Below, one piece after another: positions 7,866 to 24,150 of a stretch of 28,075 bases of DNA (its first letter is position 1; each line of letters starts with the position of its first letter). The DNA is from a virus. Its lineage: Duplodnaviria > Heunggongvirae > Uroviricota > Caudoviricetes. The notes under the pieces are model-generated. The model worked only from the letters and a program-made list of their open reading frames with translations, ran no database searches and was not told where the DNA came from. The translations under genes and the position numbers were made by a program. The stretch lies in the IMG/VR virus record IMGVR_UViG_2744054962_000004. One strand, given 5' to 3'.

Positions 7866-8030
7866 TCCCACATCGGGAGCCAATGAACTTTGAAGCAATC
7901 TTTTCTTACCTGCCCGTTGTCTGGCTGGCGTATCGCTGCGTCTATGATGGGCTGATCCTCTTGCTGCGAAGCAGTGACGTTGCCCGTCATCGCCTTGCGA
8001 CAAATATCCTACTTTGGAGACTCCATAAAA

Positions 8031-8363
8031 ATGAAAAACGTAAACGACATCCGCGCCGATATTCTCGCCGCAATGCAGGCCGCTGCCGAACCGGAGAGCG
8101 GAGATCTGAATAAAAGCGCCGAGCAGGTGTTGGCTGATGCCATCGAGGGATATCTGACCGCTTCGACTGCAACAGCCAGCAAATCAGCCCCGAAAGCAAA
8201 GACCATAAAGGAAAAAGGGATCGCTCTGTGCCACCAGGCCCAAGGTTATAGCGCTAATCTGCGTCCGGTAAGTCTCATGATGAAGGCAAGTCTTGATGAG
8301 CTAACACCTGAACAACGCGCCGCGCTTGAGCGTCTGGGTTACGATATCAATCAGGGGGTGTGA
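8031..8363 (+). CDS. hypothetical protein (110 aa)
   Basis: In-frame ATG at 8031 inside the GTG-initiated track ORF 7974..8363. Stop TGA 8361-8363 overlaps the start of the next gene (TGATG), suggesting translational coupling. Confidence 0.45.
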   Translation: MKNVNDIRADILAAMQAAAEPESGDLNKSAEQVLADAIEGYLTASTATASKSAPKAKTIKEKGIALCHQAQGYSANLRPVSLMMKASLDELTPEQRAALERLGYDINQGV

Positions 8364-10510
8364 TGTCTGGTAATATTATAGTTAGCACCCTAACAAACCG
8401 AGTGGTCTGGGATGTCGATCAGACAAGTTACGGCAAAGCCTTAAAGGCTGTTAAATCCATCAAAGCTGCTCACGAGAAGCCCGCTAAAGCGCTGGAGAAG
8501 GCCCAGAAGAGGACCGCTCAGATGGAAGGCAAGGCTTCACTAGCATCGGCTAAGGCTCAGACAGCGAAGCTCCGCCAGGCTGAACAATTGTCAAAACAGC
8601 AACAGAAACAAGCTCAGATACAAGCCAAAATGGAGCGGGACGCAATCGCCCACGCCAATAAAATGACCTCATTACAGGCTCGCCAGTTATCTCAGCAGGA
8701 GCAGGCAGCACGGCAGAATGCCCGTTTAGCAGCGATTTCTGCAAAAGTGCAGGCCGCAGCCAGATCACGAGCGATGACCTACAACCCAAACATGGGCGGT
8801 CAACATTACGATCCTGGTCTTGTTTCCCGCCAGACTGACGCAATGAACCGTGGTCACGGCGCTGTTGCTGCCGACATTGCAGCCACTAAAAGGGCTATGG
8901 CCTTAGAAGAAAAGCGCCAGCGTGAGAAAGAGGCCAGTCTTAAACGCCAGAGCACTGCATACGATACTCTGCGCCGTGCCAGTTTAACTATCAGTCATAT
9001 CGAAGGCGCTAGCCTGGCTGACAAGATGAAAGCTGTGCAGGCAATCAAAGAGGCTACCAAGGGATACTCCGAGCAGCGTTACACCATCGCAGAAATGCGC
9101 CATGAACTTGCTAAAGCGACTCTGGAAACCAGGCGGCAGGCACGTATTAACCGCCAGATTGTTAAAGATAAAGCGAAAGCCAAGCGAGCAGGGCGCATCA
9201 ATGCTCAACGTCTGACCAGTGAACGTAGCGAACGTGGTTATGGTGGCCTCGCTGCTACTGGTGTAATTGCAGGTGGTTCCCTGATTGGCTCAATGGGGGT
9301 TGCTCGTGTTGGTCAGACACTACAGGGCAGTGTTGAACGCAACCAACAGATGAAGGCTTTACAGTCTCAAGGCATCTCACGTCTTGAATATGAAGCTGTG
9401 CGCGATGTTGTCGCCAACAAAACCGGCTTTAATATTTCTCCAGACAAAGCCCTTGATTTTTCTGCTGACTATAACGACAAAGTGGGCCAGTTGACGGCTA
9501 ACGGAACATGGAAGACCAACAAAAACGGTCAATCAACGTTGTCCGGTGGTGGTGAACTTGGTGACCTTATCAACGCTATTGCAGGCAAATCCAACGTTGC
9601 CACGGCAAAGCGCGTTGTTAAAGAACTCCAGGGTATCGACTTTAATCTCTTCCTTGTGTACCTCAAGCAATTGCAGAAGACTTTTAAGTTCACGGATAAA
9701 GAAACAGCCGCTTTTGCAGAAGCGATCAACGACGCAAGCAAGATCCTTCCGGCATTTGCTGATGGTGGTGAAGCTGTTCAGAAACGTATGGATGACCTCG
9801 CCCGGAATGGTTACGCCCTGAGCGAAGCACAACAGGAACAGCTAAACCGCCTAAGCGCTCTCTCTGTTGAATATTCAAGGATCAACGATTCGTTGAGTGA
9901 TATTTTCAGCTCAGGTTTTGCTGATGGGTTGGGAGAGGTTGGCAAGAACACTTCCAGCTTTAGCAAAGGTATGGCTGGCCTCGTTCCTATTATGGATAGT
10001 TTGGGGAAGGCTGTAGGCCAGGTGACTGCTGATATGTTGTTATTTGCCGGACGGGTGGGCCAACGTGTTAACGAGGGTGCAACACTTCCGGATGCAGTCT
10101 ACAACACCGTTGTGGATGATTCCGCAAACGGTGCTGCCGATTGGATTAAGGAAAAGACCGGCTTTGATCCACGTAGCATCGGTCAGACGCTTAAGCAGAT
10201 TTACCCGTGGCTAGATAGTTCAGCACCAAGCAATATCGGCTCAGGCACAGCGTATAACGATCCAGCGCTAGCGTTGAATGTTCCAGGTCTAAACTATCAA
10301 ACACCCCAGCAACCAACGTTTACGGTTCCGACAATTGATAGCATAGTTCAGCGACAGCCGATTCCTGTTGCGGTCACTGGCGAAGCTGAGATTAAACTCT
10401 CACCGCTTGATATTAACGTGAATGACGGCGCTATTAACGGTTTGATTGATACAAAACTGAGGAGCTATGAGCAGGCACAGAACAACATGATCCTTGGTAT
10501 TGCTCAATGA
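8363..10510 (+). CDS. large coiled-coil protein with Gly-rich hydrophobic segment (tape-measure-like or scaffold-like phage structural protein)
   Basis: 715 aa from ATG 8363, SD AGGGGG. N-terminal ~300 aa are K/A/Q/R-rich heptad-like sequence. Central GGLAATGVIAGGSLIGSMGV hydrophobic Gly-zipper. N-terminus and architecture parallel the 613-aa protein of island 2 (24151..25992). No Walker A motif. Confidence 0.6.
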   Translation: MSGNIIVSTLTNRVVWDVDQTSYGKALKAVKSIKAAHEKPAKALEKAQKRTAQMEGKASLASAKAQTAKLRQAEQLSKQQQKQAQIQAKMERDAIAHANKMTSLQARQLSQQEQAARQNARLAAISAKVQAAARSRAMTYNPNMGGQHYDPGLVSRQTDAMNRGHGAVAADIAATKRAMALEEKRQREKEASLKRQSTAYDTLRRASLTISHIEGASLADKMKAVQAIKEATKGYSEQRYTIAEMRHELAKATLETRRQARINRQIVKDKAKAKRAGRINAQRLTSERSERGYGGLAATGVIAGGSLIGSMGVARVGQTLQGSVERNQQMKALQSQGISRLEYEAVRDVVANKTGFNISPDKALDFSADYNDKVGQLTANGTWKTNKNGQSTLSGGGELGDLINAIAGKSNVATAKRVVKELQGIDFNLFLVYLKQLQKTFKFTDKETAAFAEAINDASKILPAFADGGEAVQKRMDDLARNGYALSEAQQEQLNRLSALSVEYSRINDSLSDIFSSGFADGLGEVGKNTSSFSKGMAGLVPIMDSLGKAVGQVTADMLLFAGRVGQRVNEGATLPDAVYNTVVDDSANGAADWIKEKTGFDPRSIGQTLKQIYPWLDSSAPSNIGSGTAYNDPALALNVPGLNYQTPQQPTFTVPTIDSIVQRQPIPVAVTGEAEIKLSPLDINVNDGAINGLIDTKLRSYEQAQNNMILGIAQ

Positions 10511-10940
10511 TGAAACAGAGGGTGGCGAATTCGTCGCCCCTATCTCAACACCGCAATGCGTATGTATCAAATTTAGCGACAAATCAAATACTTTTCGTGA
10601 AATTTATTGTAAATAATAATCATTCGTGTTAAAATAATATACAAGGTGAATTACAACAGCCAAATGTCATTCCCTTCTATAAAGCAGGCTCTGTGACACC
10701 GTGGAGCCTCTTTTGTGATGTGTCGCTTCCAGCCTCTCACTGGACGTTTGCCAACGGGCGGTACATCACAAAAGATTCGCCCTAGGGCGTACAAAGTCTG
10801 GGCCTCTGGTCTGGATTTGCCATTAAATCCGGCTCTCCTCCGGTCATCAGCCATGATGCAAACTGGCTCAGGTGTTCAGCGTTTGAGGCTCCTTACCTCT
10901 TGGATGGCGCTGATCACCTTCTCATTCCTACCAGTGAAAT

Positions 10941-10975
10941 TGACTCCGGACGACTCTCCGTCGGGTCACTTTTTT
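10941..10975 (+). terminator. candidate Rho-independent terminator inside the 570-bp intergenic gap
   Basis: tgactccggacgac / cgtcgggtca imperfect stem followed by cTTTTTT (10969-10975). Confidence 0.4.
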
Positions 10976-11078
10976 CATCGGAACAATTCGAAAGGCTGGC
11001 CCTGTTGCCGTTTACGGCTCAAGCAGGCGCTGGCCTTTTGTTTACATAGCTATGTGAAATTTAACGGGAGTTAATAAT

Positions 11079-11420
11079 ATGAAAATGGGAACAACTGAAC
11101 GTTCTTACAATGACGCGATCGCGTATGCAATCGATCCGAATTTTGACCGCAAGACTATTACCGTCGATCTGGCTGTAGAAGTCCAGCCGGGTAGTTGCAT
11201 TACCAGCGCTGGGGCTGCTTATGTCTCTGGTGATGACTGCCTGCTGGTTCTGAGCCACCACAGGGCCGAAGATGCTGCTCATATCATCGTTGCTGATCGC
11301 GGGATTTACATCAAACAAGACACCATCGTCGCTGTTATGGGCGCTACCGCTGGCGCTAATGCTATTGCCGCACTCACCAAAACGGGCGCAATCCGTACCA
11401 GCGCACCGGACGCAGAATAA
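11079..11420 (+). CDS. small phage-structural-like protein (head-decoration-like or tail-terminator-like)
   Basis: 113-aa ORF with ATG start, Ala/Gly-rich, directly upstream of the 344-aa protein. The same small/large pair recurs in island 2 (22334..22717 then 22732..23763). Assignment rests on size and order only. Confidence 0.45.
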   Translation: MKMGTTERSYNDAIAYAIDPNFDRKTITVDLAVEVQPGSCITSAGAAYVSGDDCLLVLSHHRAEDAAHIIVADRGIYIKQDTIVAVMGATAGANAIAALTKTGAIRTSAPDAE

Positions 11421-11438
11421 TAATAAGGAGAAGACAAC

Positions 11439-12473
11439 ATGGGACTATCAACCAATTTCAGCTACGCGGATTACACCAATACCTTTGTTAACATGGATGC
11501 AAAGAACACTTTGCTGTCCACGCTTAATGTTTTCAATGATCGACAGACTTCGGCTAGTCCAAAGGTCAGCCTTGATATCATTGATGAAGTAGCCCAGAAG
11601 GTGGCAAGCTCTGTTAATCGTTACGGCTCTGAGTGGTCCAGCATTCCTAAGCGTAGCTCTAGCAATCACCTTATCGAAGCTCCGCTTTATGCTTATCAGG
11701 ACCGTATTACAGCGGCAGACGTGCAACCATACCGCAAACCAGGTTCCGACCTGCAAATGTCTGTAATGGATGCGGTCACTTCTTCTGCTGTCGCAATGCA
11801 CGATAAGTACATGCGTACCCGTGAGCGGATTTTTGCTGATGCGCTTTTTCGTAATACCGTCGAAGCGACCTACACCCAGCAGCCAATCATTTCCTGGGAA
11901 GATGAATTTGGATACCAACAGGCAACCGGGACAATCAAAACCAGCGTTAGCTCTGGTGACCCACTTCGCAGCCTCGATGATGCAGTAACCGCTGCTAAAG
12001 TGCGCATGGGGGGCCTGGCTGGTCAGCTTGATGGATTTATCCTGTTTGCAGGTAGCAATGTTTATCGCGGCATTAAGTATCACCCTGATGTTCGTCAGAA
12101 TGTTCAGTTCGGTGTGCTTGATCGGGATGTTCTGTTTAATAAAGAAGTGCTTCCGGCATTCTCAACATTCATCATTGAAAATGTTCGAGTGGTGGAGGTC
12201 ACGGATCAGGCACTATACGGAATTGGTCCGGATGAATCCTTCCTGGTTCCACGCTTTAGCAAACCGCTGTCTTCGGATATTGCTCTGCCCTTCGGTTATG
12301 TGGCAACGGCTACCAGCCGCAATCTTGATCTGGCATTTGCTGATCCGGTTGATTTCCGTATCTGGAGCGTACAAGACAAGTTTAAGAACGTTGAGCTATT
12401 CGCGGAAAGCTCTATCTTGCCTGTTGTGTACCGCCCGGATTTCACTACACGACTGACGAACGACGCAGCGTAA
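11439..12473 (+). CDS. phage-structural-like protein, ~344 aa (major-capsid-E-like or major-tail-like)
   Basis: ATG start with SD AAGGAG 8 nt upstream. N-terminal region is similar to the island 2 343-aa protein (STNFSY...NTLLSTLNVFND vs STYFGV...NTLITNLDLFDV). Size and pairing with the upstream small gene mirror the lambda D/E arrangement, but fold not verified. Confidence 0.5.
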   Translation: MGLSTNFSYADYTNTFVNMDAKNTLLSTLNVFNDRQTSASPKVSLDIIDEVAQKVASSVNRYGSEWSSIPKRSSSNHLIEAPLYAYQDRITAADVQPYRKPGSDLQMSVMDAVTSSAVAMHDKYMRTRERIFADALFRNTVEATYTQQPIISWEDEFGYQQATGTIKTSVSSGDPLRSLDDAVTAAKVRMGGLAGQLDGFILFAGSNVYRGIKYHPDVRQNVQFGVLDRDVLFNKEVLPAFSTFIIENVRVVEVTDQALYGIGPDESFLVPRFSKPLSSDIALPFGYVATATSRNLDLAFADPVDFRIWSVQDKFKNVELFAESSILPVVYRPDFTTRLTNDAA

Positions 12474-12554
12474 GACAGCGGATTTTGGGGCTGACTATTT
12501 GGCCCCACCGTGAAGAATTGCCTGAAAAGGCGAGGCAAAGAAGAGGTGATTAGT

Positions 12555-12758
12555 ATGAAAATTCAATTTCAGACGAATAACGGTTTCCCGTTGCTGACTG
12601 TTGCAGACGAGCGCGTTTTAGATTTTCTGAACGTTAGCGCCGTGTGTCGGTTCCTGAAGGTTCCGCGCTCCTCGTTCATGATGAACGTTGAGCAATACGG
12701 GCTTGAAAAGGCAATCAGTGAAGCCCTGCTGAAGTTAAGAAAGAATAAAAATTGTTAA
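12555..12758 (+). CDS. small hypothetical protein (67 aa)
   Basis: In-frame ATG at 12555 with SD AAGAGG 8 nt upstream, inside the GTG-initiated track ORF 12510..12758. Confidence 0.4.
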   Translation: MKIQFQTNNGFPLLTVADERVLDFLNVSAVCRFLKVPRSSFMMNVEQYGLEKAISEALLKLRKNKNC

Positions 12759-12917
12759 TATTCAATATGTTGTTGTTTGTTGTCAAAAGAATCATTGTGT
12801 TTGTTTTTCGCGCATTTACTTGACACCCTGATGTAGATTGCGTAACCTTCACATAAAACTATTGCCTGCGATGTGTTCAGGTATTGTCGGAAACCCATCT
12901 TTAACCGAGGAGGTAAA

Positions 12918-13076
12918 ATGGCTATCACAAGTAGTATGTTTGGTCGCACCATCCTGACTGGTAAGGATGCTGAACAAATGCTCAAGCAGATGAGCAACGC
13001 TAAGCCTAACGATAAGGCTAAGCGTTCTTTAGAAAATGCTCGTCAGCTCCGCCAAAAAATGGCAAAAAAAGCATAA
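12918..13076 (+). CDS. small protein (52 aa), possible ribbon-helix-helix regulator or antitoxin partner of the downstream GNAT gene
   Basis: ATG at 12918 with excellent SD GAGGAGG 4-5 nt upstream. Predicted short strand then helices (RTILTGKDAEQMLKQM...). Lies 30 bp upstream of the GNAT-like gene. Confidence 0.5.
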   Translation: MAITSSMFGRTILTGKDAEQMLKQMSNAKPNDKAKRSLENARQLRQKMAKKA

Positions 13077-13106
13077 TAAAAACTAAGGGCAGGTTGTTAA
13101 ACGAAA

Positions 13107-13685
13107 ATGGATGATGTGTTACAACCTGACCTTCAGATTCTTCCCCTAAATCATTTCCATAACCACAAACGTTTCAGCAGTGGTTCAGAAGAATTCCAAC
13201 CTCTTAAATCTTTTCTTCAGAAAGATGCTTTATTATTTCAAGATGGTTGTATAGCTCAAACTTATGTTGTTGTTGATGACAACATGCGGAAGGATAAAGA
13301 AGAGCCTCTCGAAACATTCCCTCATAAAGTATTAGGTTATATAACGCTGACTTGCAGCCAAGTTAACCTTAAAGAATATGACTTAGGGGACTGTGTTCGT
13401 GCAAATACGTATGAGTACTTACCTGCCGTCAAGATTGCCCGTTTAGCTGTGGATGCAAAGTGTCGGACTGGCGGGATCGGTTCAATGCTGTTCGAATACG
13501 CCTTATTAATGTCATTGGATGATATTCGCCCTATGGTTGGGTGCAGGTTCTTGATAACCGATGCTAAGAGAAGTGCCATGGATTTTTATTATAAAAAAGG
13601 GATGGAGCTTCTTGATACGCAAGAAAATCAAGAGGCTGACCACCCCATAATGTTCATCGATCTTTTCACATTACTTGAAAACTGA
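13107..13685 (+). CDS. GNAT-family acetyltransferase, candidate GNAT-type toxin (TacT/AtaT-like)
   Basis: 192-aa ORF. ...LPAVKIARLAVDAKCRTGGIGSMLFEYAL... matches the GNAT acetyl-CoA-binding motif A (R-x-x-G-x-G after a beta strand). Preceded by a small ORF in toxin-antitoxin-like order. 3' end overlaps the integrase 3' end by 20 bp (convergent). Confidence 0.6.
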   Translation: MDDVLQPDLQILPLNHFHNHKRFSSGSEEFQPLKSFLQKDALLFQDGCIAQTYVVVDDNMRKDKEEPLETFPHKVLGYITLTCSQVNLKEYDLGDCVRANTYEYLPAVKIARLAVDAKCRTGGIGSMLFEYALLMSLDDIRPMVGCRFLITDAKRSAMDFYYKKGMELLDTQENQEADHPIMFIDLFTLLEN

Positions 13686-14871
13686 TCATCTCCACATACC
13701 CCGATAGCTCCCTCATCCCCGCGCCAGCGCTGTACGTTCTGAAACTCTCCGTTTTGCCTCGCTCATGGCCCACGATTAGGGCGATCCTGTCTTCTGGTAC
13801 ACCATGCCGATCAAGCTGGCTGATAAACATTCCTCGCAGACTATGAAACACCTTCCGCTCCGTGCCTTTCTCACCCAACGCTTTACGTTTAGCCCGTGTA
13901 AATCGCTGTGTATGCCACGTTGAGCGCTTGCCGTCTGCACGTTCGGTGATGCTGGCATGGTAGAACAGAAAGCCGTTGTGGTTGTTCTGGATGAGGTTTT
14001 TAATCAGTTTCGTCAATCGGCTATGAATTGGAACCAGGCGAGCCGCATTGCGTGTCTTACCCTCCGTCACATCGAAACACCATACCCCCTCAACGGTTTT
14101 GATATTGCTGATTTGCAGAGAGCAGATTTCGTTAAGGCGCATACCGCTATACATTCCCACTATCGCAACGGCTTTCATCTCTTCATCAAGCATCGCATAC
14201 ACCTTAGCCAGTTCGTCACCGCTAAAGGGTTCGTAGCTTTCTCGATCATGGCGCACGTCCAGTTTGTGGCCCGTGAATACATTGGCTTTCGGTGCGTCGT
14301 GATAGCGGTTTTGGGCTTGTGCCACTAGTTGGGACAGACAGCCAAGATAATTCGCCAGTGTCTGGCTGGCTTTCTCCTGCTTGGCGCTGTCTAACCAATC
14401 GGTGACCATAGTCCTGTTGATTTCCTGCAACTGGAAATCCTTACGCCGGAAATGAGCCGTGAAGACCTCCACCGCCTTAATGTACTTGCTCAGGGTAGAC
14501 AGCTTGCGCCTGTCACTGTGTTGGACAATAAATTCATCCCGCAGTTGAACAAGGGAGGGACACACACGAGCCGTGGCGAAGTCTATCCCATTATTTTGGC
14601 TTACATGCTGGTTGATAGAGCGCAGTTCCACCAGGACGCGATCGACACTGTTACGTTGGGGTTTTGGCTTGAGTCGGTCTCTGATAGCAAAAAATTCGTG
14701 CATGACTTTGTCACGAATGATTCGGGCTTCCCTGATATCTGCCGTGCCAGTTGTACGCATGAATGCTGTTCGATTCCCAAAAAGGGAACGCATATAAGGC
14801 GGAATAGTGACCTTGACGGAGTACACCGAAGAGTTTTCTTTAACAAGGTACGCATTAGGCTTGTATTTCAT
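13666..14871 (-). CDS. tyrosine recombinase / phage integrase (island 1)
   Basis: 401-aa ORF with ATG start. Box I region ...GMRLNEI..., then ...KVFHSLR..., ...GHERGKTESFRTY... consistent with the R...HxxR...Y catalytic signature. Sits next to the att repeat and shares a 49-aa identical block with the island 2 integrase. Confidence 0.9.
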   Translation of the reverse strand: MKYKPNAYLVKENSSVYSVKVTIPPYMRSLFGNRTAFMRTTGTADIREARIIRDKVMHEFFAIRDRLKPKPQRNSVDRVLVELRSINQHVSQNNGIDFATARVCPSLVQLRDEFIVQHSDRRKLSTLSKYIKAVEVFTAHFRRKDFQLQEINRTMVTDWLDSAKQEKASQTLANYLGCLSQLVAQAQNRYHDAPKANVFTGHKLDVRHDRESYEPFSGDELAKVYAMLDEEMKAVAIVGMYSGMRLNEICSLQISNIKTVEGVWCFDVTEGKTRNAARLVPIHSRLTKLIKNLIQNNHNGFLFYHASITERADGKRSTWHTQRFTRAKRKALGEKGTERKVFHSLRGMFISQLDRHGVPEDRIALIVGHERGKTESFRTYSAGAGMRELSGYVEMISFQVM

Positions 14872-14986
14872 CTTTCCCCCGATCTAATATTCAGGGGCAA
14901 CTGTGATCAGTTGTGTCAGTTTTGCCTTTCAGGAGCAGCGCATACGGTTCGAAGAATCAATGACTTGTGAAACACGTCATTGGAAT

Positions 14987-15022
14987 CGAAGGTCGTAGGT
15001 TCGACTCCTATTATCGGCACCA
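14987..15022 (+). repeat. junction att core: displaced 3' fragment of tRNA-Thr (with CCA) between island 1 and island 2
   Basis: cgaaggtcgtaggttcgactcctattatcggcacCA: identical to tRNA positions 41-74, followed by an intact CCA end; no 5' half present, so not a functional tRNA. Confidence 0.85.
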
Positions 15023-15628
15023 TCAAGAAAATCAATAACTTAGCTTAACTTCTCTAAGAAATTGTATCTTCTGTTATCACTTACAAACGCCTATACGTTG
15101 TTATGGGCTTTGGTAGTGTAACACGTATGGGCGAGTAGTTCCCAGGCTCAACCTCGTAACAAGTTCCTTTGAAGCTGGAAGACGTGCCACCGTCTCTAAA
15201 CCTTCTACCAAAACTCTTAGCAAGATGTTCCACACCTGGCGCGGTGTCCAATGATGCTACACGTCGTGAGACGTTGCAGAGGATAAACAGGCTAAATGAT
15301 GGGAAGAGTTTTAAGTGCAATAGTGGATCAAAGCCCACCTCTTCAAAACCTAACTTGATCGGGAAAGAATCAAGCTCTAGCACGGTTTCGTCCACCGGAG
15401 TACAACGGGTGCCTGATAAGAGAAGAACTGCTAAGACTTCATAGCTTTTGTGAAAAAGCCCTTTTTAGTGGATACGCCTACGGCGCTTATTTTTTGGTAT
15501 AACCATCAAAGGCGCTTTATGGCTCCTATTGTCTTGAAAATGTATCTTTACTTGTATTGTGTTTTATGCGTAGTCTCCCTGTGTAGTATGTAACTTGTTA
15601 ATTTTCATATGAATACAGAGGCAACACG

Positions 15629-15781
15629 ATGAAAAATATTGCAGCTATCAAACGTAATAACCGCAAGATTCACGCTCGTAAGTTCCTGTCTACGCCAGAA
15701 GGAAAAGCCTGGCTAGAGCGTAAACAGAGAGAGAACGAAGAAAGAAAACTCCTTAGTGAGTTGAAATGGCTTAAGGATTGA
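15629..15781 (+). CDS. small basic protein (50 aa), function unknown
   Basis: ATG 15629 with SD GAGG 7 nt upstream, stop TGA 15779-15781; absent from the ORF track because it is under 60 aa. MKNIAAIKRNNRKIHARKF... is highly basic. Confidence 0.4.
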   Translation: MKNIAAIKRNNRKIHARKFLSTPEGKAWLERKQRENEERKLLSELKWLKD

Positions 15782-15791
15782 ATCACCAGTA

Positions 15792-15833
15792 GGCGCATAA
15801 CACATCCAGCGATCAAAGATGTGTTTATGCGCC
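15792..15833. other. long near-perfect hairpin (15-bp stem) between convergent mini-ORFs
   Basis: GGCGCATAACACATC (15792-15806) pairs with GATGTGTTTATGCGCC (15818-15833) with one bulge and an 11-nt loop; no U-tract on either side. Confidence 0.5.
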
Positions 15834-15847
15834 TGATAGTGAAATTA

Positions 15848-16006
15848 TTAAAGTCGTTTAGTTAACATCGCCATTGCTTGAGCAATAATTGCAACAGCGT
15901 CCATCTCTTCACTGGAAGCGATGCAAATGCGGTAACTAATAGCCACAATGAATACATCAATAACGAGAAAGTGAATAGTGTGAAGATGTTTTGAAAGTAA
16001 ATGCAT
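15848..16006 (-). CDS. small hydrophobic protein (52 aa), function unknown
   Basis: ATG at 16006 with strong SD GGAGG and 5-nt spacer; my reverse-strand translation is MHLLSKHLHTIHFLVIDVFIVAISYRICIASSEEMDAVAIIAQAMAMLTKRL. In a different frame from the TTG-initiated track ORF 15862..16071. Confidence 0.4.
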   Translation of the reverse strand: MHLLSKHLHTIHFLVIDVFIVAISYRICIASSEEMDAVAIIAQAMAMLTKRL

Positions 16007-16400
16007 AACTTCCTCCGGTTTTGGGATAGGAGGATTAGAACATGCATTAAATGATGTTGCAAGAATGGCAATTTACCCTAATAGTCTACTATTCACCTCA
16101 ATCTACGTCAACCAATATTTGATGTAGATTTAATTTTCTTTTAAAAACAATATGTTGTTATTTGTTGAATTTTGGGGTTAGGTTGTTTTTTGAACGTTTT
16201 CATCAAGTGTAAAGATACGTTTAGCCTTCATAGTGAGTTCAGTTACTGTCTTTTTCTCTGAAATCGGCGCAAACGTGATCATCGCTTGAGGTTGCTGCTC
16301 TTACTTCTCAAATTGTGATGGAGAACGATAAAGGTTAGAGGGCACTTTTATTTTTTTAAGCAAGTGTATAGCATAAGAATAATCTAAAAAGGGAGGTTAT

Positions 16401-16952
16401 ATGCGCAGGTCTGCATTTGTGAGGATGATGATTTTTACAACGTTGTTTGTAGGGGGAACTTCTACCGCAGTTGCTAAAAACTGCAAAAAAGGAATACCTT
16501 GTGGTAACTCGTGTATAGCTGTTGGTAAGACGTGCCGGATTGGCTCTTATGCCCCTTCATCTTATAAAAATCATTCATACTCTTATCCTTCATCCTCTAT
16601 TCGAAGCTCGCAATCAAATAATTCACGAAAAACTGAAGGAGTGAAAACGACTCCTGCTGCCAAAAATTATCTTTGCCAATACTCTATTGCATCAATCGAA
16701 AACGGACGTTTAGGGGCATTACGTGTTCAGGGATACGCACAAGTAACTTTATATGCAGATAGCTTCAAGGCTAACAGATTAAATGGAACATATTTGATAT
16801 CGCCAAAACTGAATGCTAACGGCAAGTTTATGATGGCAGATGATAAAAGCAAGGTTTATGCTTATGATTCTTGGCTATTAAATTTTGCAATAAGCGATCG
16901 TATCACAAGAACGACAGAACAATGGGATCGATGTAAGCTCAATCAAAAATAA
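16401..16952 (+). CDS. secreted Cys-rich protein (signal peptide), function unknown
   Basis: 183-aa ORF with ATG start and SD GGGAGG. N-terminal signal peptide (MRRSAFVRMMIFTTLFVGGTSTAVA) followed by CKKGIPCGNSCIAVGKTC cysteine cluster and a Ser/Tyr-rich linker. AT-rich. Confidence 0.55.
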   Translation: MRRSAFVRMMIFTTLFVGGTSTAVAKNCKKGIPCGNSCIAVGKTCRIGSYAPSSYKNHSYSYPSSSIRSSQSNNSRKTEGVKTTPAAKNYLCQYSIASIENGRLGALRVQGYAQVTLYADSFKANRLNGTYLISPKLNANGKFMMADDKSKVYAYDSWLLNFAISDRITRTTEQWDRCKLNQK

Positions 16953-18080
16953 CAGTTAGAGAAGCTCTTGTAGAGGCATTATTGAGTTATTGGTTTTAAT
17001 ATTTTTGTGCCTCTATGGGCTTTTTTTGCCTTTTTGCAATGTAGAAGAGAGCACAGGAATCGTTAAAATTAATTATTGGGGTATTTAAGGTTATTTTCAG
17101 GTGATTTAAGGGTATTAAACGTAATTTAAGTGATTAAAATATAAACAGGTTGTTCTGTATCTTATTGATTTATAAGGTTGTTTTCAAATAAAGGTAAATA
17201 AAAAATAAATAGCCATAAATAGCTATAAATACATCTAAATACATATGAATCCCCTCCCTTATGGCTAGATTGCGAGAGGTGCTTAACGCGATTTTCAGCG
17301 CCCCCCGATCTGGAAAATCCAGAATCCCCAAATATCAGCAAGGAATTTTCTTGCGTAATCAACATCGTTTTTACCTATTAAATCATTACACAGAAAGCCT
17401 TTCTGTAATGTCTCTCACTAAACTTTCACTAAACACGAGAATGATCGGTTTTATGTCGGATCAGATGCTAGAAACAGCACCACGTCTCACAAGGGCTGTA
17501 AGCGATGAAACCAGTGTTTATGCGGGTGCAGGTCAAAATATAGGCCAAAATACATTTAACATAATAATCGTAATATGCACTAAGGAACACATAGAACGCC
17601 TTGAGTTGATGTATCAGGGGAAAAATGGTGTATTTTTTACGTAGGAGCACGAGAGGGCTTCTATTGACTTTTGTATGCTATGAAATATAATAGAAGATTT
17701 TTTATTTTTATGTTGATAGTGATTGCACATTAAAGATTGAAAGCAAATTTAAACATAAATTTTCAACACGTGAAAGAACTTGTTCAACAAATGATAGAAC
17801 GTTTATTGAGCAACAATTTTGCAGTGATGCGCTATATGCCGCATAACATAAGGCTTTGCTGATGATGACGCAAAAGTGAAGAAAGTAAGAATTGCATTTT
17901 GAAGCCATTTTTCTTGGATTTTTTAGTATGGAATTACACAGGGATTAATCATCAATTAATCTTGAATTTAAGCTTGTTTTAGATGTTTAATTTTTGATAG
18001 CAAGAAAGACTTTTACTGATTATAAGAAGATCATTGCACAGATGTTATGTGATGGATGTAACGGTAGGTCACTGTGAGCT

Positions 18081-18217
18081 ACCCCCACAGAATTCTGTTA
18101 TCCTTAACTTTTAAAGAAATATGCACCCTAACAGAAAACTGTTACCCCAACCCTAACAGAATTATGTTAGACACCCCCACAGAAAACTGTTAGCCACCCC
18201 TACAGAATTTTGTTACC
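18081..18217. repeat. five iteron-like direct repeats (~22-23 bp), candidate replication origin or operator array
   Basis: acccccacagaattctgttatcc (18081), accctaacagaaaactgttacccc (18125), ccctaacagaattatgttag (18151), acccccacagaaaactgttagcc (18172), acccctacagaattttgttacc (18195). Consensus CCCYMACAGAAWWNTGTTA with internal dyad ACAGAA..TCTGT; four copies are tandem at ~23-bp spacing. Confidence 0.7.
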
Positions 18218-18908
18218 TATTAGATCAACTATCAAACTACAATTAAATTATCTTTTATAAATTCTTTTATCTTTAAAGAATAATTATAGGGATACCCGTT
18301 AGGGAGTCTTCGACTATCCCTTAATCTATTGGCATTCGCCAGAACCTTGCACAAGTTAGAGTGTTAGTCAGTTAGACTGATACTTCTCATAACACATAGT
18401 TTTTGTTTGTTAATGTTAGTTAGTAGATCTATGTTCGCTTTCCGCTCACAACGAATATGTAATCTACTATGTGCAAATAGCCTACGGCTTGCGTAAGGCT
18501 AAATAGTCTTGCGCTGTGCGCAGAACGATAATTAACTAACTACCATCTAACGATCATCAATCATCTAAAATAAATTTCTTGTGCAATGTTCTTGCGAATG
18601 CAATTAGGGTAGCGTTACCCCTTTGGGGATGCTAACGCATAACTATAGATCAACCATCAAACAGACAAAAAAGAAAAATATGGTTTAAAGATGTTAGGTA
18701 GTAGATGAGTTTCTACCGCTTAAATCAAACCGTAGGCGAGCTAAACAGCCATTACATAAGGGAATGTATTGTTTTTATCAAAACCTCGTTAGAACGCGTT
18801 TTAGAGCGTTTTAGACAATAATGAAGAATTGGAGTATTCGTAAGAGCACGAATTGCTAAGAAAAATCATAACACACTGAAAATGATCAATATTTTTATGG
18901 CTGGGGGG

Positions 18909-18937
18909 TTGACAAAAGCCTTTAGTCGTGGTAAAGT
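18909..18937 (+). promoter_or_regulatory. sigma70-like promoter for the island 2 rightward operon
   Basis: TTGACA (18909-18914), 17-bp spacer, TAAAGT (18932-18937), about 120 bp upstream of the first ATG (19059). Confidence 0.4.
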
Positions 18938-19058
18938 AATATTAGGGGCAGGAAAACATTCTTATCCTTTAAATAATTAAACCAATGCATCGCACTTTGA
19001 AGCCCAAGGCTTGCAAGGTGTCTATTTCTTTTAACTAAATAGAATAGGAGGTTAATTA

Positions 19059-19259
19059 ATGAAATATTTCACTCCACAGGATATTGTGGAAGCCTGGAAA
19101 CGTGGTGAGATCAACCGTTTTAAAGTAAGGATGAACAGGAACACAGCGCGACGCTGTGGTTATCCAGAGCGTGAAAAATGCTTTGACGATGCACTAAAAA
19201 TTATTGATGAATTAAGAAAAAATGAAAAAGGATCTGAAAAAGAATCTGAAACAGAGTAA
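19059..19259 (+). CDS. small hypothetical protein (66 aa)
   Basis: ATG with SD AGGAGG 7 nt upstream; charged, helical-looking; no recognisable motif. Confidence 0.45.
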   Translation: MKYFTPQDIVEAWKRGEINRFKVRMNRNTARRCGYPEREKCFDDALKIIDELRKNEKGSEKESETE

Positions 19260-19278
19260 AGAAGAGAAGGAGAAAACT

Positions 19279-19449
19279 ATGAGCGAAACTACAGAAAAGA
19301 AAAGGCAACCACGCACTTGCTTTCATATTCCTGATGAAGTATTTCAGGTGTTGTTTAAAGAAGCCAGAAGTAAACGTATCACTGTTACAGATTACATTCT
19401 TGATATGTTGAAAAGAGAGGCTGAAACACTCTCAAACAAAAGCAAGTGA
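19279..19449 (+). CDS. ribbon-helix-helix-like DNA-binding protein (56 aa)
   Basis: ATG 19279 with SD AAGGAG 6 nt upstream (preferred over the upstream ATG 19222, which overlaps the previous gene). ...RTCFHIPDEVFQVLFKEARSKRITVTDYILDMLKRE... has the strand-helix-helix pattern of Arc/CopG-type proteins. Confidence 0.5.
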   Translation: MSETTEKKRQPRTCFHIPDEVFQVLFKEARSKRITVTDYILDMLKREAETLSNKSK

Positions 19450-19502
19450 TTTTTATCACCATAGTAGCGCCGTAGAGCGTGATTACATCAAGGAGATTTT
19501 TA

Positions 19503-20072
19503 ATGATTAATGAAGAACAATTTGTAAAAGTTCCTATGTGGATTCTAAAAATAAGCCAAGTAAACGGGCATAAATTTACAGATAGTGCTAAAAACCTTTA
19601 CTGCTATCTGAGAGGGTTTGATCGTGCATTTCCCTCTTACGCTAAGATAGGCGATGTTTTTGGCATAACACCAAGAGCAGCAGAAGAAAGGGTTAAGAAA
19701 TTGCTCGAAATGGGATTAATTATAAAAGATGCACGACCAGGAAGCTCTAACCTTTATCGAGTGCTTGATATTCCAAAAGGAGAATCATCACTACCTGATC
19801 CTTCTGAGAAAGAAGACGAATCTAATGAAATATTGAATGTTTCCGAAATCATCGTTGAAGAAGAAACACAAGAGCCAGAGTTCCCTGAGCGGCCCGAAAT
19901 TTTTACTTGGCTTCTTTCCCTTGATAAGAAGAAACCACCGCACGAAGAAACAGAAGATTTTGTAAAACGAGCATTAGATTCAAAGAATATCTATCTTTGT
20001 GAAAATGATTTTGACTCTTTGATAATTGATCTCAAAAGTGAGAGCACAATATATGATTCACTACCCTTTTAA
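19503..20072 (+). CDS. putative replication initiator / winged-helix DNA-binding protein with acidic C-terminal tail
   Basis: ATG 19503 with SD AGGAGA 6 nt upstream (track ORF starts at GTG 19479). ...YAKIGDVFGITPRAAEERVKKLLEMGLIIKDARPGSSNLYRVL... HTH plus wing. Acidic tail (EKEDESNEILNVSEIIVEEETQEPEFPE). Counterpart of island 1 gene 6576..7376. Confidence 0.55.
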   Translation: MINEEQFVKVPMWILKISQVNGHKFTDSAKNLYCYLRGFDRAFPSYAKIGDVFGITPRAAEERVKKLLEMGLIIKDARPGSSNLYRVLDIPKGESSLPDPSEKEDESNEILNVSEIIVEEETQEPEFPERPEIFTWLLSLDKKKPPHEETEDFVKRALDSKNIYLCENDFDSLIIDLKSESTIYDSLPF

Positions 20073-20206
20073 GGAAATAAATGATTTATAACATCACAAA
20101 CAATCAGTAACAACAGATCGGGCAATACATATGGCAAGTGCATTTGTAGCAATATTCATCGTAACTATGGCATTCAGTTTTTATAATCCACATAAAAAGA
20201 GGGAAA

Positions 20207-20587
20207 ATGGGAAGAAAGAAAAAGAACAACTTAAAACGTATTGAGCAAGGGAACACCTTCAACGACGTAAGAAAGCAAGTTTATAAGAATAATGAAGAAG
20301 CAGGTGAAGAGATAGTCTTCATTTTAGAATCTAACAGCCCACCACTTACAAACGAAGAATTAGAAATTATTCAATCAATGGGTGATGGTGTGTATTTCAA
20401 ACCCAGAACAAGAAAGACAACGATTATAGAACCTGGCACATTGAAGAAATGGCAATTGTTAGGCTTTACCTCATTTCGTCACTATACAGGCTTCAATTCG
20501 TTCAACAATCAGGTAGGCGGCGTTACAGAAACAGATCTGATGCAGCACCTGATCGACACTCTCGCATCTAACAAACGTTCTAACTAA
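20207..20587 (+). CDS. hypothetical protein (126 aa) with basic N-terminus
   Basis: ATG start, SD-like AAGAGGGA upstream; MGRKKKNNLKR... N-terminus. Confidence 0.45.
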   Translation: MGRKKKNNLKRIEQGNTFNDVRKQVYKNNEEAGEEIVFILESNSPPLTNEELEIIQSMGDGVYFKPRTRKTTIIEPGTLKKWQLLGFTSFRHYTGFNSFNNQVGGVTETDLMQHLIDTLASNKRSN

Positions 20588-20602
20588 TAGAAAGACGGGC
20601 GT

Positions 20603-20848
20603 ATGTATAAGCGCCCAATGAAAATATTCGAAAAAGGAAAAATAATGATTGGCTATATTCAAGAAACACAATTATTTCAGATGCTCCTGTCTGATGCAAA
20701 AAACTATGCTGAGTTAATCCGGCTGGCAAAAGAAACAGAAGACTACGAAGCATTAGAACGTTACCGTGATGAAGTGCTGACGCTCAAGACACCTTTTAAC
20801 ATCGTATTGAATATGATTAATGATGCATTACAAGGAGAATACGCATAA
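20603..20848 (+). CDS. small hypothetical protein (81 aa; alternative starts at 20618 or 20645)
   Basis: ORF with three in-frame ATGs; the one at 20645 has the best SD (AAAGGAAA). Stop overlaps the next start (ATAATG at 20846-20850). Confidence 0.4.
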   Translation: MYKRPMKIFEKGKIMIGYIQETQLFQMLLSDAKNYAELIRLAKETEDYEALERYRDEVLTLKTPFNIVLNMINDALQGEYA

Positions 20849-21150
20849 TGGAAGAAGATATTAGCAATGCAATGGAACAACTTTTAGATCTGACTATCTC
20901 ACTACAAACAAGAATAAATCAAGCCTATTCAGATTTATGCGATTATACGCTCTCTCAATGCGTTATTAGCTTAATGAAGCTCAATGTATGCTTAGAAGAT
21001 TTTGTCTCTCTGGTGAGCGATTTAGAGCTATCAGATGCCAAGATGTGCACTCAAACCATCACAGACACCGCCAGCACGTTAAAGGCTGCAAGTGAAGAGA
21101 TTCAGCAATTAGTAAATGATTTAGCAAAAAGTGCTATTTTCTCTAAATGA
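20848..21150 (+). CDS. hypothetical protein (100 aa)
   Basis: ATG with SD AAGGAGAA 8 nt upstream; start overlaps the upstream stop (translational coupling); predicted helical. Confidence 0.45.
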   Translation: MEEDISNAMEQLLDLTISLQTRINQAYSDLCDYTLSQCVISLMKLNVCLEDFVSLVSDLELSDAKMCTQTITDTASTLKAASEEIQQLVNDLAKSAIFSK

Positions 21151-22057
21151 TAATGAAAATCATTTGCATTTATGATGATTTTGTTATATAATAATTTTAG
21201 GGGTAGATTAAAAGATTTTAGTTGGTGTTAATCCTTCTACTGTCATAAATCCCTGCATATGGAAGGTGATAGCCTCAAAGGTTGAGTGGCATTAACCTCT
21301 AACAAATATTACCTTCCATCTATCAAGAAGTTTTAGAATAATCATAACTCCCTCTTTGATTGTTGATTGTTTCTACGTTGTGTTGATGAATGTTGTTAGG
21401 CATTGTGCTTAATTTTTGATAAAAGCGGGTAGGTGTTATCTCCTTGCCCTTCCCGCTCTTATTTTTCATCTATGCTTATCCTAAAGCTCCTTATTTTGTC
21501 CGAAAACATTAAAGAGCCTTACACTGATAGTTATATTTTATAACTATTTACTAACATCATTAAACTCTTATTTAATGACGGAAGTTAGTAACAGAATAAT
21601 CTATTAAGTTGTTGTCAAAAAACTATCATCTGCATAGCGTTAGCCGCAAGTAGAGAGAGTTTAGCTAAGAATGGTGCAATAAACTTTGGAAATATTGATA
21701 GCAAAACGGGTTTTATAGAATGCGGATCTATAATCTTTGGTTGTGAAACGATTTTCTGAAACGGTAGATTACTGTTGGTGTAGTTAATCCTTATTAAAAA
21801 TTTAATCTGTGAGTAGATTGGAATAGTGATTCCTTAAAATCTGACTGGTGCATCCACACCATGAAAGATAGCGGTTAGCCACCGCGCCCCGAATAGATAT
21901 TCCTGATTGATTCCGCATGTTTTCTTAAGAGCATGTTTTCAGGAGTATCTATTCACCCTTTAAGCATATCATCAAGTATATTTAAAAAGTGTATTTGCTG
22001 ATATGTTTAATCCTCTTATAGTTTAACTTATCAATTATGTAATTGCCCGCACGTTAA

Positions 22058-22104
22058 AGCCCCTTTGCTGGTCAGAACCTCTTACGGCATTGGGGCTTTT
22101 TATT
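22058..22104 (+). terminator. candidate intrinsic terminator / attenuator upstream of the structural-like operon
   Basis: AGCCCC ... GGGGCT inverted repeat with a long (28-nt) loop followed by TTTTTATTT. Confidence 0.35.
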
Positions 22105-22131
22105 TGTCTGGCACTAACAGGAACGTTATTT

Positions 22132-22329
22132 ATGAAACAAGAAATGATTATCAGCAAAGACGGGGAAACGATGATTGTTAGTGATGAAAACCTCATTAAG
22201 GTTGCCGCACTGTTGGGAGTTACTCCCGAAAGTCTTCGTTCTACCACTGCTCAATTATTTAAATCGGCTGATGCGGTTAGTCTTGCTGATGCCCTTAAAT
22301 CTAAAATTAAACAACTGAAAGGAAAATAA
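22132..22329 (+). CDS. small hypothetical protein (65 aa)
   Basis: In-frame ATG at 22132 inside the TTG-initiated track ORF 22090..22329; sits immediately upstream of the small/large structural pair. Confidence 0.4.
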   Translation: MKQEMIISKDGETMIVSDENLIKVAALLGVTPESLRSTTAQLFKSADAVSLADALKSKIKQLKGK

Positions 22330-22333
22330 TCTT

Positions 22334-22717
22334 ATGGCTAACCCATATGGAAAATTAAAAGCAGTGAATGCGGATAATTCCCGTTCACGCTGTAAGGTAG
22401 TAGCTTACGCTGCTGATCCAGTGCTGCAAGATCGCCTCGTCAAACTGGCTTCACCTCTCACTGACGATCTTATTGTCGGGGCTTTGCTGAAAGCCGATGG
22501 CACCAAAGCAACAACCGCTTCTGATATTGCTCACGTAGTGGTTGAACCGGCTTATGAAGGACAGGAAAGCGTAGTGGTTGCACATCCTACTTTCGTTATT
22601 CTGGCTGAAGATGGGATTGAATTTAACAGTATGGAAAAGGCAAGTGTTATTGCAAAACTGCAATCTCTCGGCTTTGTAATTGCTGGTTATGAAGAACTTG
22701 CGATCCCTACGACTTAA
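22334..22717 (+). CDS. small phage-structural-like protein (head-decoration-like or tail-terminator-like)
   Basis: 127-aa ORF with ATG start, directly followed (14-bp gap) by the 343-aa protein; positional counterpart of island 1 gene 11079..11420. Confidence 0.45.
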   Translation: MANPYGKLKAVNADNSRSRCKVVAYAADPVLQDRLVKLASPLTDDLIVGALLKADGTKATTASDIAHVVVEPAYEGQESVVVAHPTFVILAEDGIEFNSMEKASVIAKLQSLGFVIAGYEELAIPTT

Positions 22718-22731
22718 CAAGGAAAATAATA

Positions 22732-23763
22732 ATGAATGATTTATCAACATATTTTGGCGTTAATACTGCGGTAGTAACTCCATTTGCTTATGAGAATGCA
22801 CTTAATACCCTGATTACTAATCTCGATCTGTTCGATGTGCAATATCATACAGAAAACAGCATTCTTCTTACCGACCTGATTGATCAGTTTGTGCAGGTAG
22901 CTGGGGAAACCTCGCCTTACGCTCAAAGCGACTGGAACGCCTCTAAACGTCAGGAATGGTCAAACAAACTTTTCCAGATGAAACACGTCGGCAGTATTAA
23001 CGCTGTTACTTCTCGTGACCTGGAACAATACAGCCGCCAATATCCAAACCGTTCTGATGCTATGCTGGTAGCGGTTAATGATTTCTCTGAGGCACATTAC
23101 CGTTCACACGCAAACCGTGTTGAAGTGGATCTGATTACCGCGCTGCTGGGCCTGAAAGTTGAATCTGAATATGCCGGACAAGGTGATCTCGACTTCCTCG
23201 ACGGTCAGGCTAAAACCACGGTACCCGCTATCGACTTTGCATCGACTACTGTTAACCCGTTCCTTGCTATTCGTAAAGCGGTGCGCTTACAGAGTGAAAA
23301 GCTGGGGTCTGGTCTTGCTGCAAAGCGAACTGGTGTAATTATCTTTGCTGCTGGCGCTGCTGCTGATGGTTTGTCATCTAACCCGCTGATCAGTGACATG
23401 GTGAAATATGCAGGTGATGCGAGTGCTACGGCCCTGTTTACCCGTATGGTTGATTCTAACCCAGCCTATGACTCTTTCCAGATTGGTGGGATCACTGTTA
23501 TTGATGTGTCAATGTTTCCTGAGATTGTTGCTCACATCGGAGAGAACGGTTTCGCAATTGTTCCAGTAATGGATAAAGCGGCACAGTGCTATCAGCTTCA
23601 TAGCGGCGTTGGTGTGCGTCATGCTGAGTTAGGTCAAGATGCCGTGTTACATCACCAATATCTAATCAAGGATGAATTCCAATTCCCATCTGTGGTTACT
23701 GAGACATCTTATCTGCCAGTAAACAACATTCCGCAAGCTATCATCTTCGGATCTGCTGCGTAA
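22732..23763 (+). CDS. phage-structural-like protein, 343 aa (major-capsid-E-like or major-tail-like)
   Basis: ATG start. N-terminal similarity to island 1 protein 11439..12473; same size. Fold not verified. Confidence 0.5.
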   Translation: MNDLSTYFGVNTAVVTPFAYENALNTLITNLDLFDVQYHTENSILLTDLIDQFVQVAGETSPYAQSDWNASKRQEWSNKLFQMKHVGSINAVTSRDLEQYSRQYPNRSDAMLVAVNDFSEAHYRSHANRVEVDLITALLGLKVESEYAGQGDLDFLDGQAKTTVPAIDFASTTVNPFLAIRKAVRLQSEKLGSGLAAKRTGVIIFAAGAAADGLSSNPLISDMVKYAGDASATALFTRMVDSNPAYDSFQIGGITVIDVSMFPEIVAHIGENGFAIVPVMDKAAQCYQLHSGVGVRHAELGQDAVLHHQYLIKDEFQFPSVVTETSYLPVNNIPQAIIFGSAA

Positions 23764-23918
23764 TAAAGCGTTAATAGACGATTCCCCATCGTCTGGAAAT
23801 AATCGGGGCAATAAGGGTAAGGGATAATCATATAAGCAAAATATGCGCTGTCTCTTGCCCTTATTTTTTTTCTACTGTCTACAAACCCAAATAAAAATAT
23901 ATATGTGAGAGAAAACCA

Positions 23919-24116: not shown

Positions 24117-24150
24117 TAAACAACAATCATAATACAGGGAAACAATTAGC

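Follow-up and report, generated by a model that had tools for sequence, protein, structure and literature searches.

At the left end of the second of two tandem islands in a 28,075-nucleotide (nt) stretch of viral DNA (IMG/VR record IMGVR_UViG_2744054962_000004, Caudoviricetes; hereafter the window), two very short open reading frames (ORFs) converge on a long hairpin. ORF1, on the plus strand, encodes a basic protein of 50 amino acids (aa), and ORF2, on the minus strand, encodes a hydrophobic peptide of 52 aa. On balance, we favour the view that this site is the junction between a conserved module on the tRNA side of the island and its variable cargo, where two independent units meet with a hairpin between them. 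Just upstream of the pair lies the most novel element of the region, a structured RNA of about 440 nt that belongs to no Rfam family. The initial annotation had noted two convergent mini-ORFs with Shine-Dalgarno (SD) sequences around a long hairpin, in the cargo position at the left end of the island, and all three elements are where it had placed them. It had also suggested a small toxin/regulator pair or addiction module, and this part fares less well: ORF2 does have the anatomy of a toxin gene, in that it encodes a predicted transmembrane (TM) segment, is served by a promoter of its own and has a leader predicted to mask the SD and AUG, but a dedicated pair of the two ORFs is not supported.

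The distribution of the two ORFs among 5,426 complete E. coli genomes, with ORF1 counted at 90% identity or more, shows that they occur independently of each other. About 480 records carry ORF1. The hairpin is present in 227, together with the window type of ORF2 in 171 and with an allele that we refer to as PT62 in about 56. Around 250 E. coli records have ORF1 with neither the hairpin nor ORF2, as do most other genera with ORF1, and a further 72 have only a third allele of ORF2 (TOE3), which resides in a glyU island without ORF1. A type II toxin-antitoxin (TA) or addiction operon was rejected on similar grounds, as the genes are convergent rather than co-directional, each occurs alone and there is no match to a TA family. 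No copy of ORF1, ORF2 or the structured RNA was found in the CP4-6 element at thrW of E. coli K-12.

Mosaic boundaries run through the site itself. In comparison with SA186-type islands, positions 15780-17019 are an insertion that comprises the hairpin, the ORF2 cassette and a 183-aa ORF, and the left breakpoint falls in the last codons of ORF1 (...KWLKD* versus ...KWLREDF*). In strain O104:H4 and in TOE3, the ORF2 cassette is followed, at the position equivalent to 16287, by a serine recombinase gene (WP_001273869.1), which has been replaced in the window; its place is occupied by the 183-aa cargo ORF (16401-16952, plus strand, within 16288-17019). The product of this ORF has a hydrophobic N-terminus and a Cys-rich segment, looks secreted or lipoprotein-like and falls in PHROG 2578/14768, of unknown function, with no significant match in family searches of Pfam, NCBIfam, PHROGs and PADLOC. 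A 34-aa minus-strand ORF at 16178-16282 was treated as non-coding, as it has no SD and corresponds elsewhere to the 3′ flank of the recombinase gene.

The genes that follow ORF1 also differ from genus to genus. Next to the ORF1 stop codon, Citrobacter and Enterobacter adelaidei have the gene of a 126-aa secreted protein; Kosakonia and Kluyvera have that of a 146-aa protein whose C-terminus contains a TM segment, and several other genera have no abutting gene. Thus, ORF1 is the last backbone gene, and the cargo slot begins at its stop codon, in agreement with the cargo position proposed initially. In other genera (loci L013, L020, L015 and L016), the first cargo gene is usually convergent and ends between -3 and +44 nt from the ORF1 stop, which gives the slot a fixed edge and a favoured direction. 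What follows ORF1 is not, in general, a small hydrophobic convergent ORF. The convergent ORF1/ORF2 arrangement is also found at proA-thrW in K. pneumoniae, with a gap of 30 nt, and in R. planticola, with a gap of 12 nt. The K. pneumoniae pairs often lie in island remnants truncated by IS26. Because the ORF1 sequences of these thrW islands are the most alike, the recurrence of the pair in them can be explained by shared ancestry. In many K. pneumoniae (loci L046-L050), only the end of the island with the RNA, ORF1 and ORF2 is left, cut by IS26 within about 1 kb, and this end may be hard to lose or may simply be protected by its neighbours.

ORF1 encodes a protein with an isoelectric point of 10.5 and 15 lysine and arginine residues, and an AGAGG SD lies 7 nt 5′ of its start codon. 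Both ORFs had been thought to fall below the usual threshold of gene calling; in fact, the RefSeq annotation pipeline (PGAP) calls ORF1 as WP_000788776.1 and ORF2 as WP_000550449.1, each under the name 'hypothetical protein'. A protein search recovered 57 relatives of ORF1, of 49-52 aa, in Escherichia, Klebsiella, Raoultella and Enterobacter, and a scan at the DNA level added Citrobacter, Kosakonia, Kluyvera, Scandinavium, Pantoea, Winslowiella, Erwinia and Mangrovibacter, with orthologues in at least 10 enterobacterial genera. In 16 orthologues, the start and length are kept and a properly spaced SD precedes every one of them; the core KRNNRKIHARKFLxTPEGKAWLERK is invariant or nearly so, and the C-terminus is variable. 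Variation is greatest at third codon positions (47, compared with 26 first and 24 second ones), synonymous divergence has reached saturation at a nonsynonymous divergence (dN) of about 0.3, and the median ratio of nonsynonymous to synonymous divergence (dN/dS) is 0.14 among measurable pairs. Judged by these substitution patterns, ORF1 is a real gene under purifying selection.

An AlphaFold2 model of the ORF1 protein predicts a hairpin of two helices (residues 4-20 and 23-49) with a mean confidence score (pLDDT) of 90.5. Searches of Pfam, NCBIfam, PHROGs and PADLOC gave no significant family match, the only match in a sequence-profile search of the PDB was the ribosomal protein bL34 at a non-significant E of 0.62, and Foldseek returned 0 hits when the model was compared with the PDB. 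RNAalifold found no consensus structure occluding the SD in the ORF1 leader across genera. On the opposite strand, a weak terminator-like hairpin with a T run (15639-15666, minus strand) overlies the first codons of ORF1 and is not conserved outside E. coli; an ORF2 transcript that passed the large hairpin would stop there, fully antisense to ORF1.

The interval upstream of ORF1 is itself conserved. In the loci with flanking sequence, ORF1 lies about 560-700 nt 3′ of a tRNA gene of the same orientation, for tRNA-Thr(CGU) or tRNA-Leu(CAA). The DNA between the two has been kept across genera; its indels do not come in multiples of three, and compensatory changes are obvious. It contains an RNA family that is conserved from Escherichia to Pantoea and Erwinia. 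In an alignment of 14 sequences (A6), RNAalifold predicts 58 base pairs, 22 of which show compensatory changes; 95% of the alignment cells are paired, as opposed to 35-41% in controls with slid partners, two-sided changes occur in 22 pairs versus 3-8 in the slid controls, and none of 500 shuffles reaches the observed values. The cells include 74 G-U and 14 A-C combinations, and this excess indicates that the plus strand is the one that folds. Among the elements of the predicted fold are GNRA-type loops and a long-range helix (UGUUGGG/CCCAACA) in which a U-A pair is swapped for A-U; this helix spans a terminator-like hairpin with a U run. A search of Rfam 15 with the window and five orthologous loci found only the tRNA, at the gathering score as well as at E values up to 10 or 1. 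Literature searches on the two protein accessions, DUF6538, thrW with non-coding RNA, and satellites with structured RNA returned nothing relevant.

Every ORF1 locus with intact flanks has this RNA of about 440 nt before ORF1, a link that runs in one direction only and is subject to ascertainment bias, because the RNA-bearing loci were themselves identified by way of ORF1. A covariance model of the 3′ domain of the RNA (R1) detected a second, divergent member of the family within the window, at the tRNA-side end of island 1, where both the long-range and the local helices carry compensatory changes. This copy appears to extend over about 1500-1906 (plus strand), directly 3′ of thrW, with the covariance model match covering its last part. 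R1 also matched copies in a glyU island and, in E. coli Nissle 1917, one that precedes a gene for an AbiJ-domain protein. When the divergent copies are included in a deep alignment, the covariation persists, with compensatory changes in 16 of 32 pairs. Relatives of the island 1 type of RNA were found by blastn in 1,164 of the 5,426 E. coli genomes and at 45 places in plasmids, nearly all of them unannotated; the carriers include Nissle 1917 and E2348/69, and the RNA typically lies just 5′ of a cargo gene, for instance an AbiJ-domain gene or relBE.

ORF2 encodes a peptide with a grand average of hydropathy of +0.98, preceded by a GGAGG SD (16012-16016) located 5 nt 5′ of the start codon. Comparison at the DNA level recovered four alleles, of which only the window type and its close variants carry an annotation, and a profile search found K. 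pneumoniae variants on at least 310 contigs. The minus-strand frame is the only one open in every allele. Between the window and PT62 alleles, the differences number 21, 17 and 36 at first, second and third codon positions, and random mutants at matched divergence retained the frame in only 15% of trials at the TOE3 level and in 3% at the PT62 level. The frame, SD, length and TM profile have been maintained at 35-56% aa identity across three genera; every allele has a predicted TM segment at about residues 10-30 (best 19-aa Kyte-Doolittle window 1.9-2.3) and a conserved C-terminus of the form A-I-I-x-x-A-M/I-A-x-L/M...T-K-R/K-L. Pfam, NCBIfam, PHROGs and PADLOC hold no toxin or other family that matches ORF2 (E up to 10 or 1), including the described type I toxins (Hok/Gef, Ldr, TisB, Ibs, ShoB, Zor, Fst and others), and its database homologues are all 'hypothetical'. 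The products of ORF1 and ORF2 represent new and unclassified protein families.

Upstream of ORF2, a scan identified a sigma-70-type promoter whose hexamers are kept in PT62, R. planticola and K. pneumoniae amid diverged surroundings. In every allele, the leader is predicted to base-pair the SD, and in E. coli, also the AUG. In the window, the SD pairs with an anti-SD at 16028-16033 (CCUCC/GGAGG) and the AUG region with 16041-16047. The occluding helices use different sequences in the other alleles, namely GAUACC/GGGUAUC in PT62 and an 11-bp helix, AAUCCUCCUA/UAGGAGGAUU, in R. planticola (z = -3.7), and the Klebsiella copy has the same arrangement. By these sequence features, the gene looks like one that produces a type I toxin mRNA. 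We searched for an RNA that could act as its antitoxin. No direct or inverted repeats linking the leader to its flanks were found beyond chance, promoter scans of three alleles gave no positionally conserved plus-strand promoter, and a promoter-like site on the plus strand within ORF2 (15862-15889) is not conserved in the other alleles. Convergent transcription of ORF1 could provide an antisense RNA, but the glyU copy of ORF2 has no ORF1 beside it. The -35 hexamer is overlapped by an inverted repeat that may serve as an operator or may end a plus-strand RNA antisense to ORF2; in R. planticola, this repeat is not conserved as a hairpin.

The hairpin between the stop codons was originally described as a 15-bp stem at 15792..15833; it is indeed present, with a main stem that we refine to 17 bp (15790-15806 with 15818-15835, one bulged base and an 11-nt loop) and an outer helix of 4 bp (15783-15786 with 15839-15842). 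Its minimum free energy as RNA is -28.8 kcal/mol on the plus strand and -32.4 kcal/mol on the minus strand (z = -7.4 and -6.9), and none of 200 shuffles was as stable. No U tract follows the stem on either strand (2-3 U within the first 8 nt), and the terminator scan did not report it; it is, thus, not a canonical Rho-independent terminator. In 226 E. coli genomes, the hairpin occurs once and only at the ORF1/ORF2 locus, and an ORF2 allele accompanies it wherever it is found in thrW islands. It is missing from SA186-type islands, from the glyU copy of ORF2 and from the ORF1/ORF2 pairs of Klebsiella and Raoultella, and unrelated genes abut ORF1 elsewhere, so that the idea of a pair built around it is not supported. 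Natural single-base variants lack compensation and no copy occurs outside E. coli, and we therefore do not regard it as a conserved part of the ORF pair. A repetitive extragenic palindromic element is ruled out by the single copy per genome, an integron attC-like site by arms (GCATAAC/GTTTATG) that do not fit the R″/R′ cores (RYYYAAC/GTTRRRY) and by the lack of IntI, both integrases being of the DUF6538 plus Phage_integrase type, and a serine-recombinase site by a presence that does not track the recombinase. Most likely, it is a stabilising or pausing stem-loop at the shared 3′ ends of the two convergent transcripts.

Table 1. Coordinates of the features discussed (window positions unless a locus is named).
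Feature	Position	Strand	Remarks
tRNA-Thr(CGU), thrW	1369-1442		
Island 1	1443-15022		Directly after thrW
Divergent member of the RNA family (3′ domain)	1730-1906	+	R1 cmsearch, E = 9e-7; tRNA-side end of island 1
Island 1 tyrosine integrase	13666-14871	-	Closes island 1 together with the partial thrW copy
Attachment (att) repeat	14987-15022	+	36-nt partial copy of the thrW 3′ end; island 1/island 2 junction
Island 2	15023-28075		Begins at the att repeat and continues past the window edge
Structured RNA, ~440 nt	15088-15524	+	Between the att site and ORF1; covariation
ORF1	15629-15781	+	ATG start, 50 aa; last conserved backbone gene before the cargo
Hairpin	15783-15842	both	Between the ORF1 and ORF2 stop codons
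ORF2 (window type)	15848-16006	-	ATG start, 52 aa; first cargo gene
Exchangeable ORF2 cassette	15868-16287	-	85% identity to the glyU island of TOE3
ORF2 5′ leader	16007-16076	-	Predicted occluding structure
ORF2 promoter, sigma-70 type	-35 TTGACG 16106-16111; -10 TAGACT 16083-16088	-	Promoter scan
12-bp inverted repeat	16100-16130	both	Overlaps the ORF2 -35 hexamer; terminator-like on +, T-rich run after it
Second integrase (island 2)	26798-28075	-	
ORF2, TOE3 allele (glyU island)	L004 5972-6139	-	55 aa
ORF2, PT62 allele	L005 6289-6447	-	52 aa
ORF2, R. planticola allele	L009 3166-3333	-	56 aa

The window matches the proA-thrW locus of E. coli chromosomes, where the two islands lie in tandem (Table 1). 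From position 14987, it aligns to locus L002 from 5424, within the tRNA-Thr gene of that locus (5384-5459), and in strain ECCRA-119, island 2 stands directly behind thrW. Both integrases consist of a DUF6538 domain, a SAM-like domain and a Phage_integrase domain. Island 2 encodes an O-like replication initiator, a tape-measure-like protein, a Dit-like protein and a protein with weak similarity to a major head protein and is, therefore, a small phage-like or satellite-like element; the ORF1/hairpin/ORF2 site lies about 600 bp inward from its tRNA-side end. In each of the two islands of the window, the tyrosine integrase gene is distal to the tRNA and reads inward and the structured RNA is proximal to it; in the excised form, int and the RNA would flank attP. 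Further into island 2, about 2.1 kb of AT-rich DNA (16953-19058, 32-37% G+C) has no annotated gene in any of the RefSeq records examined, and part of it (17020-17711) is 93-98% identical between island variants; the region could contain pseudogenes, regulatory DNA or another RNA.

In the reading that we favour, the two units would have separate tasks. The ORF1 protein probably binds nucleic acid and would most likely work with the upstream RNA or with the att/integrase module, the latter because excision would place ORF1 beside int across attP. ORF2 would be a self-contained cargo cassette of the 'moron' type, with its own sigma-70 promoter, a leader that pairs the SD and AUG, and a 52-aa peptide with a single TM segment that may be type-I-toxin-like or otherwise act on membranes, and its translation would require remodelling or processing of the leader. 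The hairpin would be an E. coli-specific and dispensable stem-loop at the 3′ ends, where the convergent transcripts meet. The analysis itself supports the view that both ORFs are coding and that they are distributed independently, and it also supports the mosaic boundaries, the ORF2 promoter, the leader structures and the covariation of the RNA; what we say of the transcription, translation, toxicity and binding partners of both ORFs is predicted from sequence. Defence hotspots of this general kind in P2 and P4 were reportedly described by Rousset et al. in 2022. The site resembles P2/P4-type moron hotspots in having a promoter-gene-stem-loop unit and a fixed variable slot with host-specific contents beside a conserved backbone gene, but unlike P4, in which the hotspot lies between psu and int, the slot here is found at the att end beside the tRNA, where a structured RNA and a mini-protein directly precede it.

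Several observations weigh against this reading. ORF1 has no homologue of known function in any of the family, PDB sequence or Foldseek searches described above, and divergent copies of the RNA exist without ORF1 and are followed by other genes. The dN/dS ratio of ORF2 is only about 0.6 between its two closest alleles (window and TOE3), which implies weak constraint, and neither the repeat search nor the promoter scans yielded an antitoxin RNA for it. Furthermore, the adjacency of ORF1 and ORF2 persists in Escherichia, Klebsiella and Raoultella even though the ORF2 peptides have diverged to about 35% identity, which could point to a functional link between the two and not only to common descent.

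Among the alternatives, it is possible, if not probable, that ORF2 is a non-toxic membrane moron, for example, one for superinfection exclusion or for modulation of a host membrane protein, in which case no antitoxin exists. The failure to find an antitoxin candidate would then be expected, neighbouring cargo slots are filled by genes for secreted, lipoprotein-like or membrane proteins and by genes for defence (the 183-aa ORF, YecR and AbiJ), and the conserved amphipathic C-terminus (AIIxxAMAxLTKRL) is unlike that of known type I toxins. By contrast, a leader that hides the SD and AUG, as predicted for every allele, is characteristic of toxic peptides that are kept off, and some copies of ORF2 adjoin a resolvase, which recalls the stability regions of plasmids.

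We consider it unlikely that the site is a convergent type I TA system in which ORF2 is the toxin and the ORF1 transcript, or a shorter plus-strand RNA, extends past the U-less hairpin and serves as a cis-antisense antitoxin on the 3′ end of the toxin mRNA. Such a system would account for the toxin-like anatomy of ORF2, for an E. coli hairpin that has no U tract on either strand, and for the remnants of RNA, ORF1 and ORF2 that persist next to IS26 at thrW in K. pneumoniae. The arrangement is also kept in E. coli, K. pneumoniae and R. planticola, and in the last two, there is no terminator between the genes, so that their transcripts should overlap. The long retention of the arrangement and the lack of a terminator between the genes leave some room for an antisense interaction through overlapping 3′ ends. 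However, the 72 E. coli genomes with ORF2 alone have no plus-strand promoter beside that copy, ORF1 is selected at the protein level and is widespread without ORF2, the 5′ regions share no par-like direct repeats, and the hairpin is not conserved. As in par/Fst of pAD1 and in txpA/RatA and bsrG/SR4 of B. subtilis, the gene of a small TM peptide on a mobile element has a leader that would sequester the ribosome-binding site, and a convergent transcript would meet it at a shared stem-loop. Unlike in those systems, the partner here is a conserved and much wider-spread protein gene, no complementary repeats or dedicated small RNA were found, and the stem-loop has no U tracts and is not conserved; the direct repeats in the 5′ regions and the shared bidirectional intrinsic terminator that are the hallmarks of par/Fst are both absent from ORF1/ORF2. 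With Hok/Sok, ORF2 has in common its size (about 52 aa, compared with about 50 aa for Hok/Gef), an N-terminal TM segment and a predicted mRNA fold that would block translation, but it has no Hok/Gef match in Pfam or NCBIfam, no mok-like overlapping frame and no Sok-like antisense promoter, and its C-terminal motif differs.

A more ambitious proposal, which we put forward with considerable doubt, is that ORF1 is the dedicated partner of an undescribed class of RNAs of about 440 nt, with which it would form a ribonucleoprotein that controls the life cycle of the island or the expression of the cargo slot. The RNA would then mark the tRNA-proximal end of widespread satellite-like islands with DUF6538-type integrases, and ORF2 would be one of many cargo genes under the control of the RNA and ORF1. 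Rop (Rom) of ColE1 is a small helical-hairpin protein encoded beside RNA II and the origin. As a purely structural analogy, ORF1 may likewise be a small helical hairpin, and it lies directly 3′ of a long structured RNA. Unlike Rop, it is strongly basic and has no sequence or Foldseek similarity to it, the island encodes an O-like initiator of its own, and Rfam gives no RNA I or RNA II match for the RNA.

It is still less probable, in our view, that ORF1 is the excisionase, or recombination directionality factor (RDF), of the island integrase. In KplE1, the RDF gene torI and the integrase gene intS lie at opposite ends of the prophage, and ORF1 would be placed similarly, as a gene about 600 bp from att, at the end opposite the integrase, that would adjoin int across attP after excision. 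Its product is small and very basic, as is usual for an RDF, and the gene is conserved with the backbone across genera. Nevertheless, the predicted two-helix hairpin is neither a winged helix nor a helix-turn-helix (HTH) fold, there is no sequence similarity to TorI and no match to an Xis, AlpA or HTH family, and island 1 and the glyU island, which have the same type of integrase and the same RNA family, have no ORF1 homologue. Finally, the idea that both ORFs are chance open frames and that only the hairpin or the DNA matters, to which their very short length and the dN/dS of about 0.6 for ORF2 might lend some appeal, is very improbable, as the substitution patterns already contradict it: ORF1 has saturated synonymous sites, a low dN/dS and a start, an SD and a length that have been kept among 16 orthologues, and ORF2 has kept its frame, SD, length and TM profile across three genera.

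ORF2 adds an uncharacterised family of membrane peptides of about 52-56 aa, with predicted translational control like that of type I toxins, that is found in hundreds of E. coli and Klebsiella genomes, including that of the outbreak strain O104:H4. Good candidates for its function are the stabilisation of mobile islands, abortive infection or exclusion. Proteins of 50 aa that, like ORF1, are clearly under purifying selection across genera and yet have no known relatives are rare. The most consequential result is the flanking covarying RNA without an Rfam family, which is att-proximal in many tRNA-integrated islands and lies directly upstream of the slot for cargo and defence genes. If this RNA and ORF1 cooperate, they would offer an experimentally accessible entry point to these islands, in which the protein is small, the RNA defined and the att site and integrase known.

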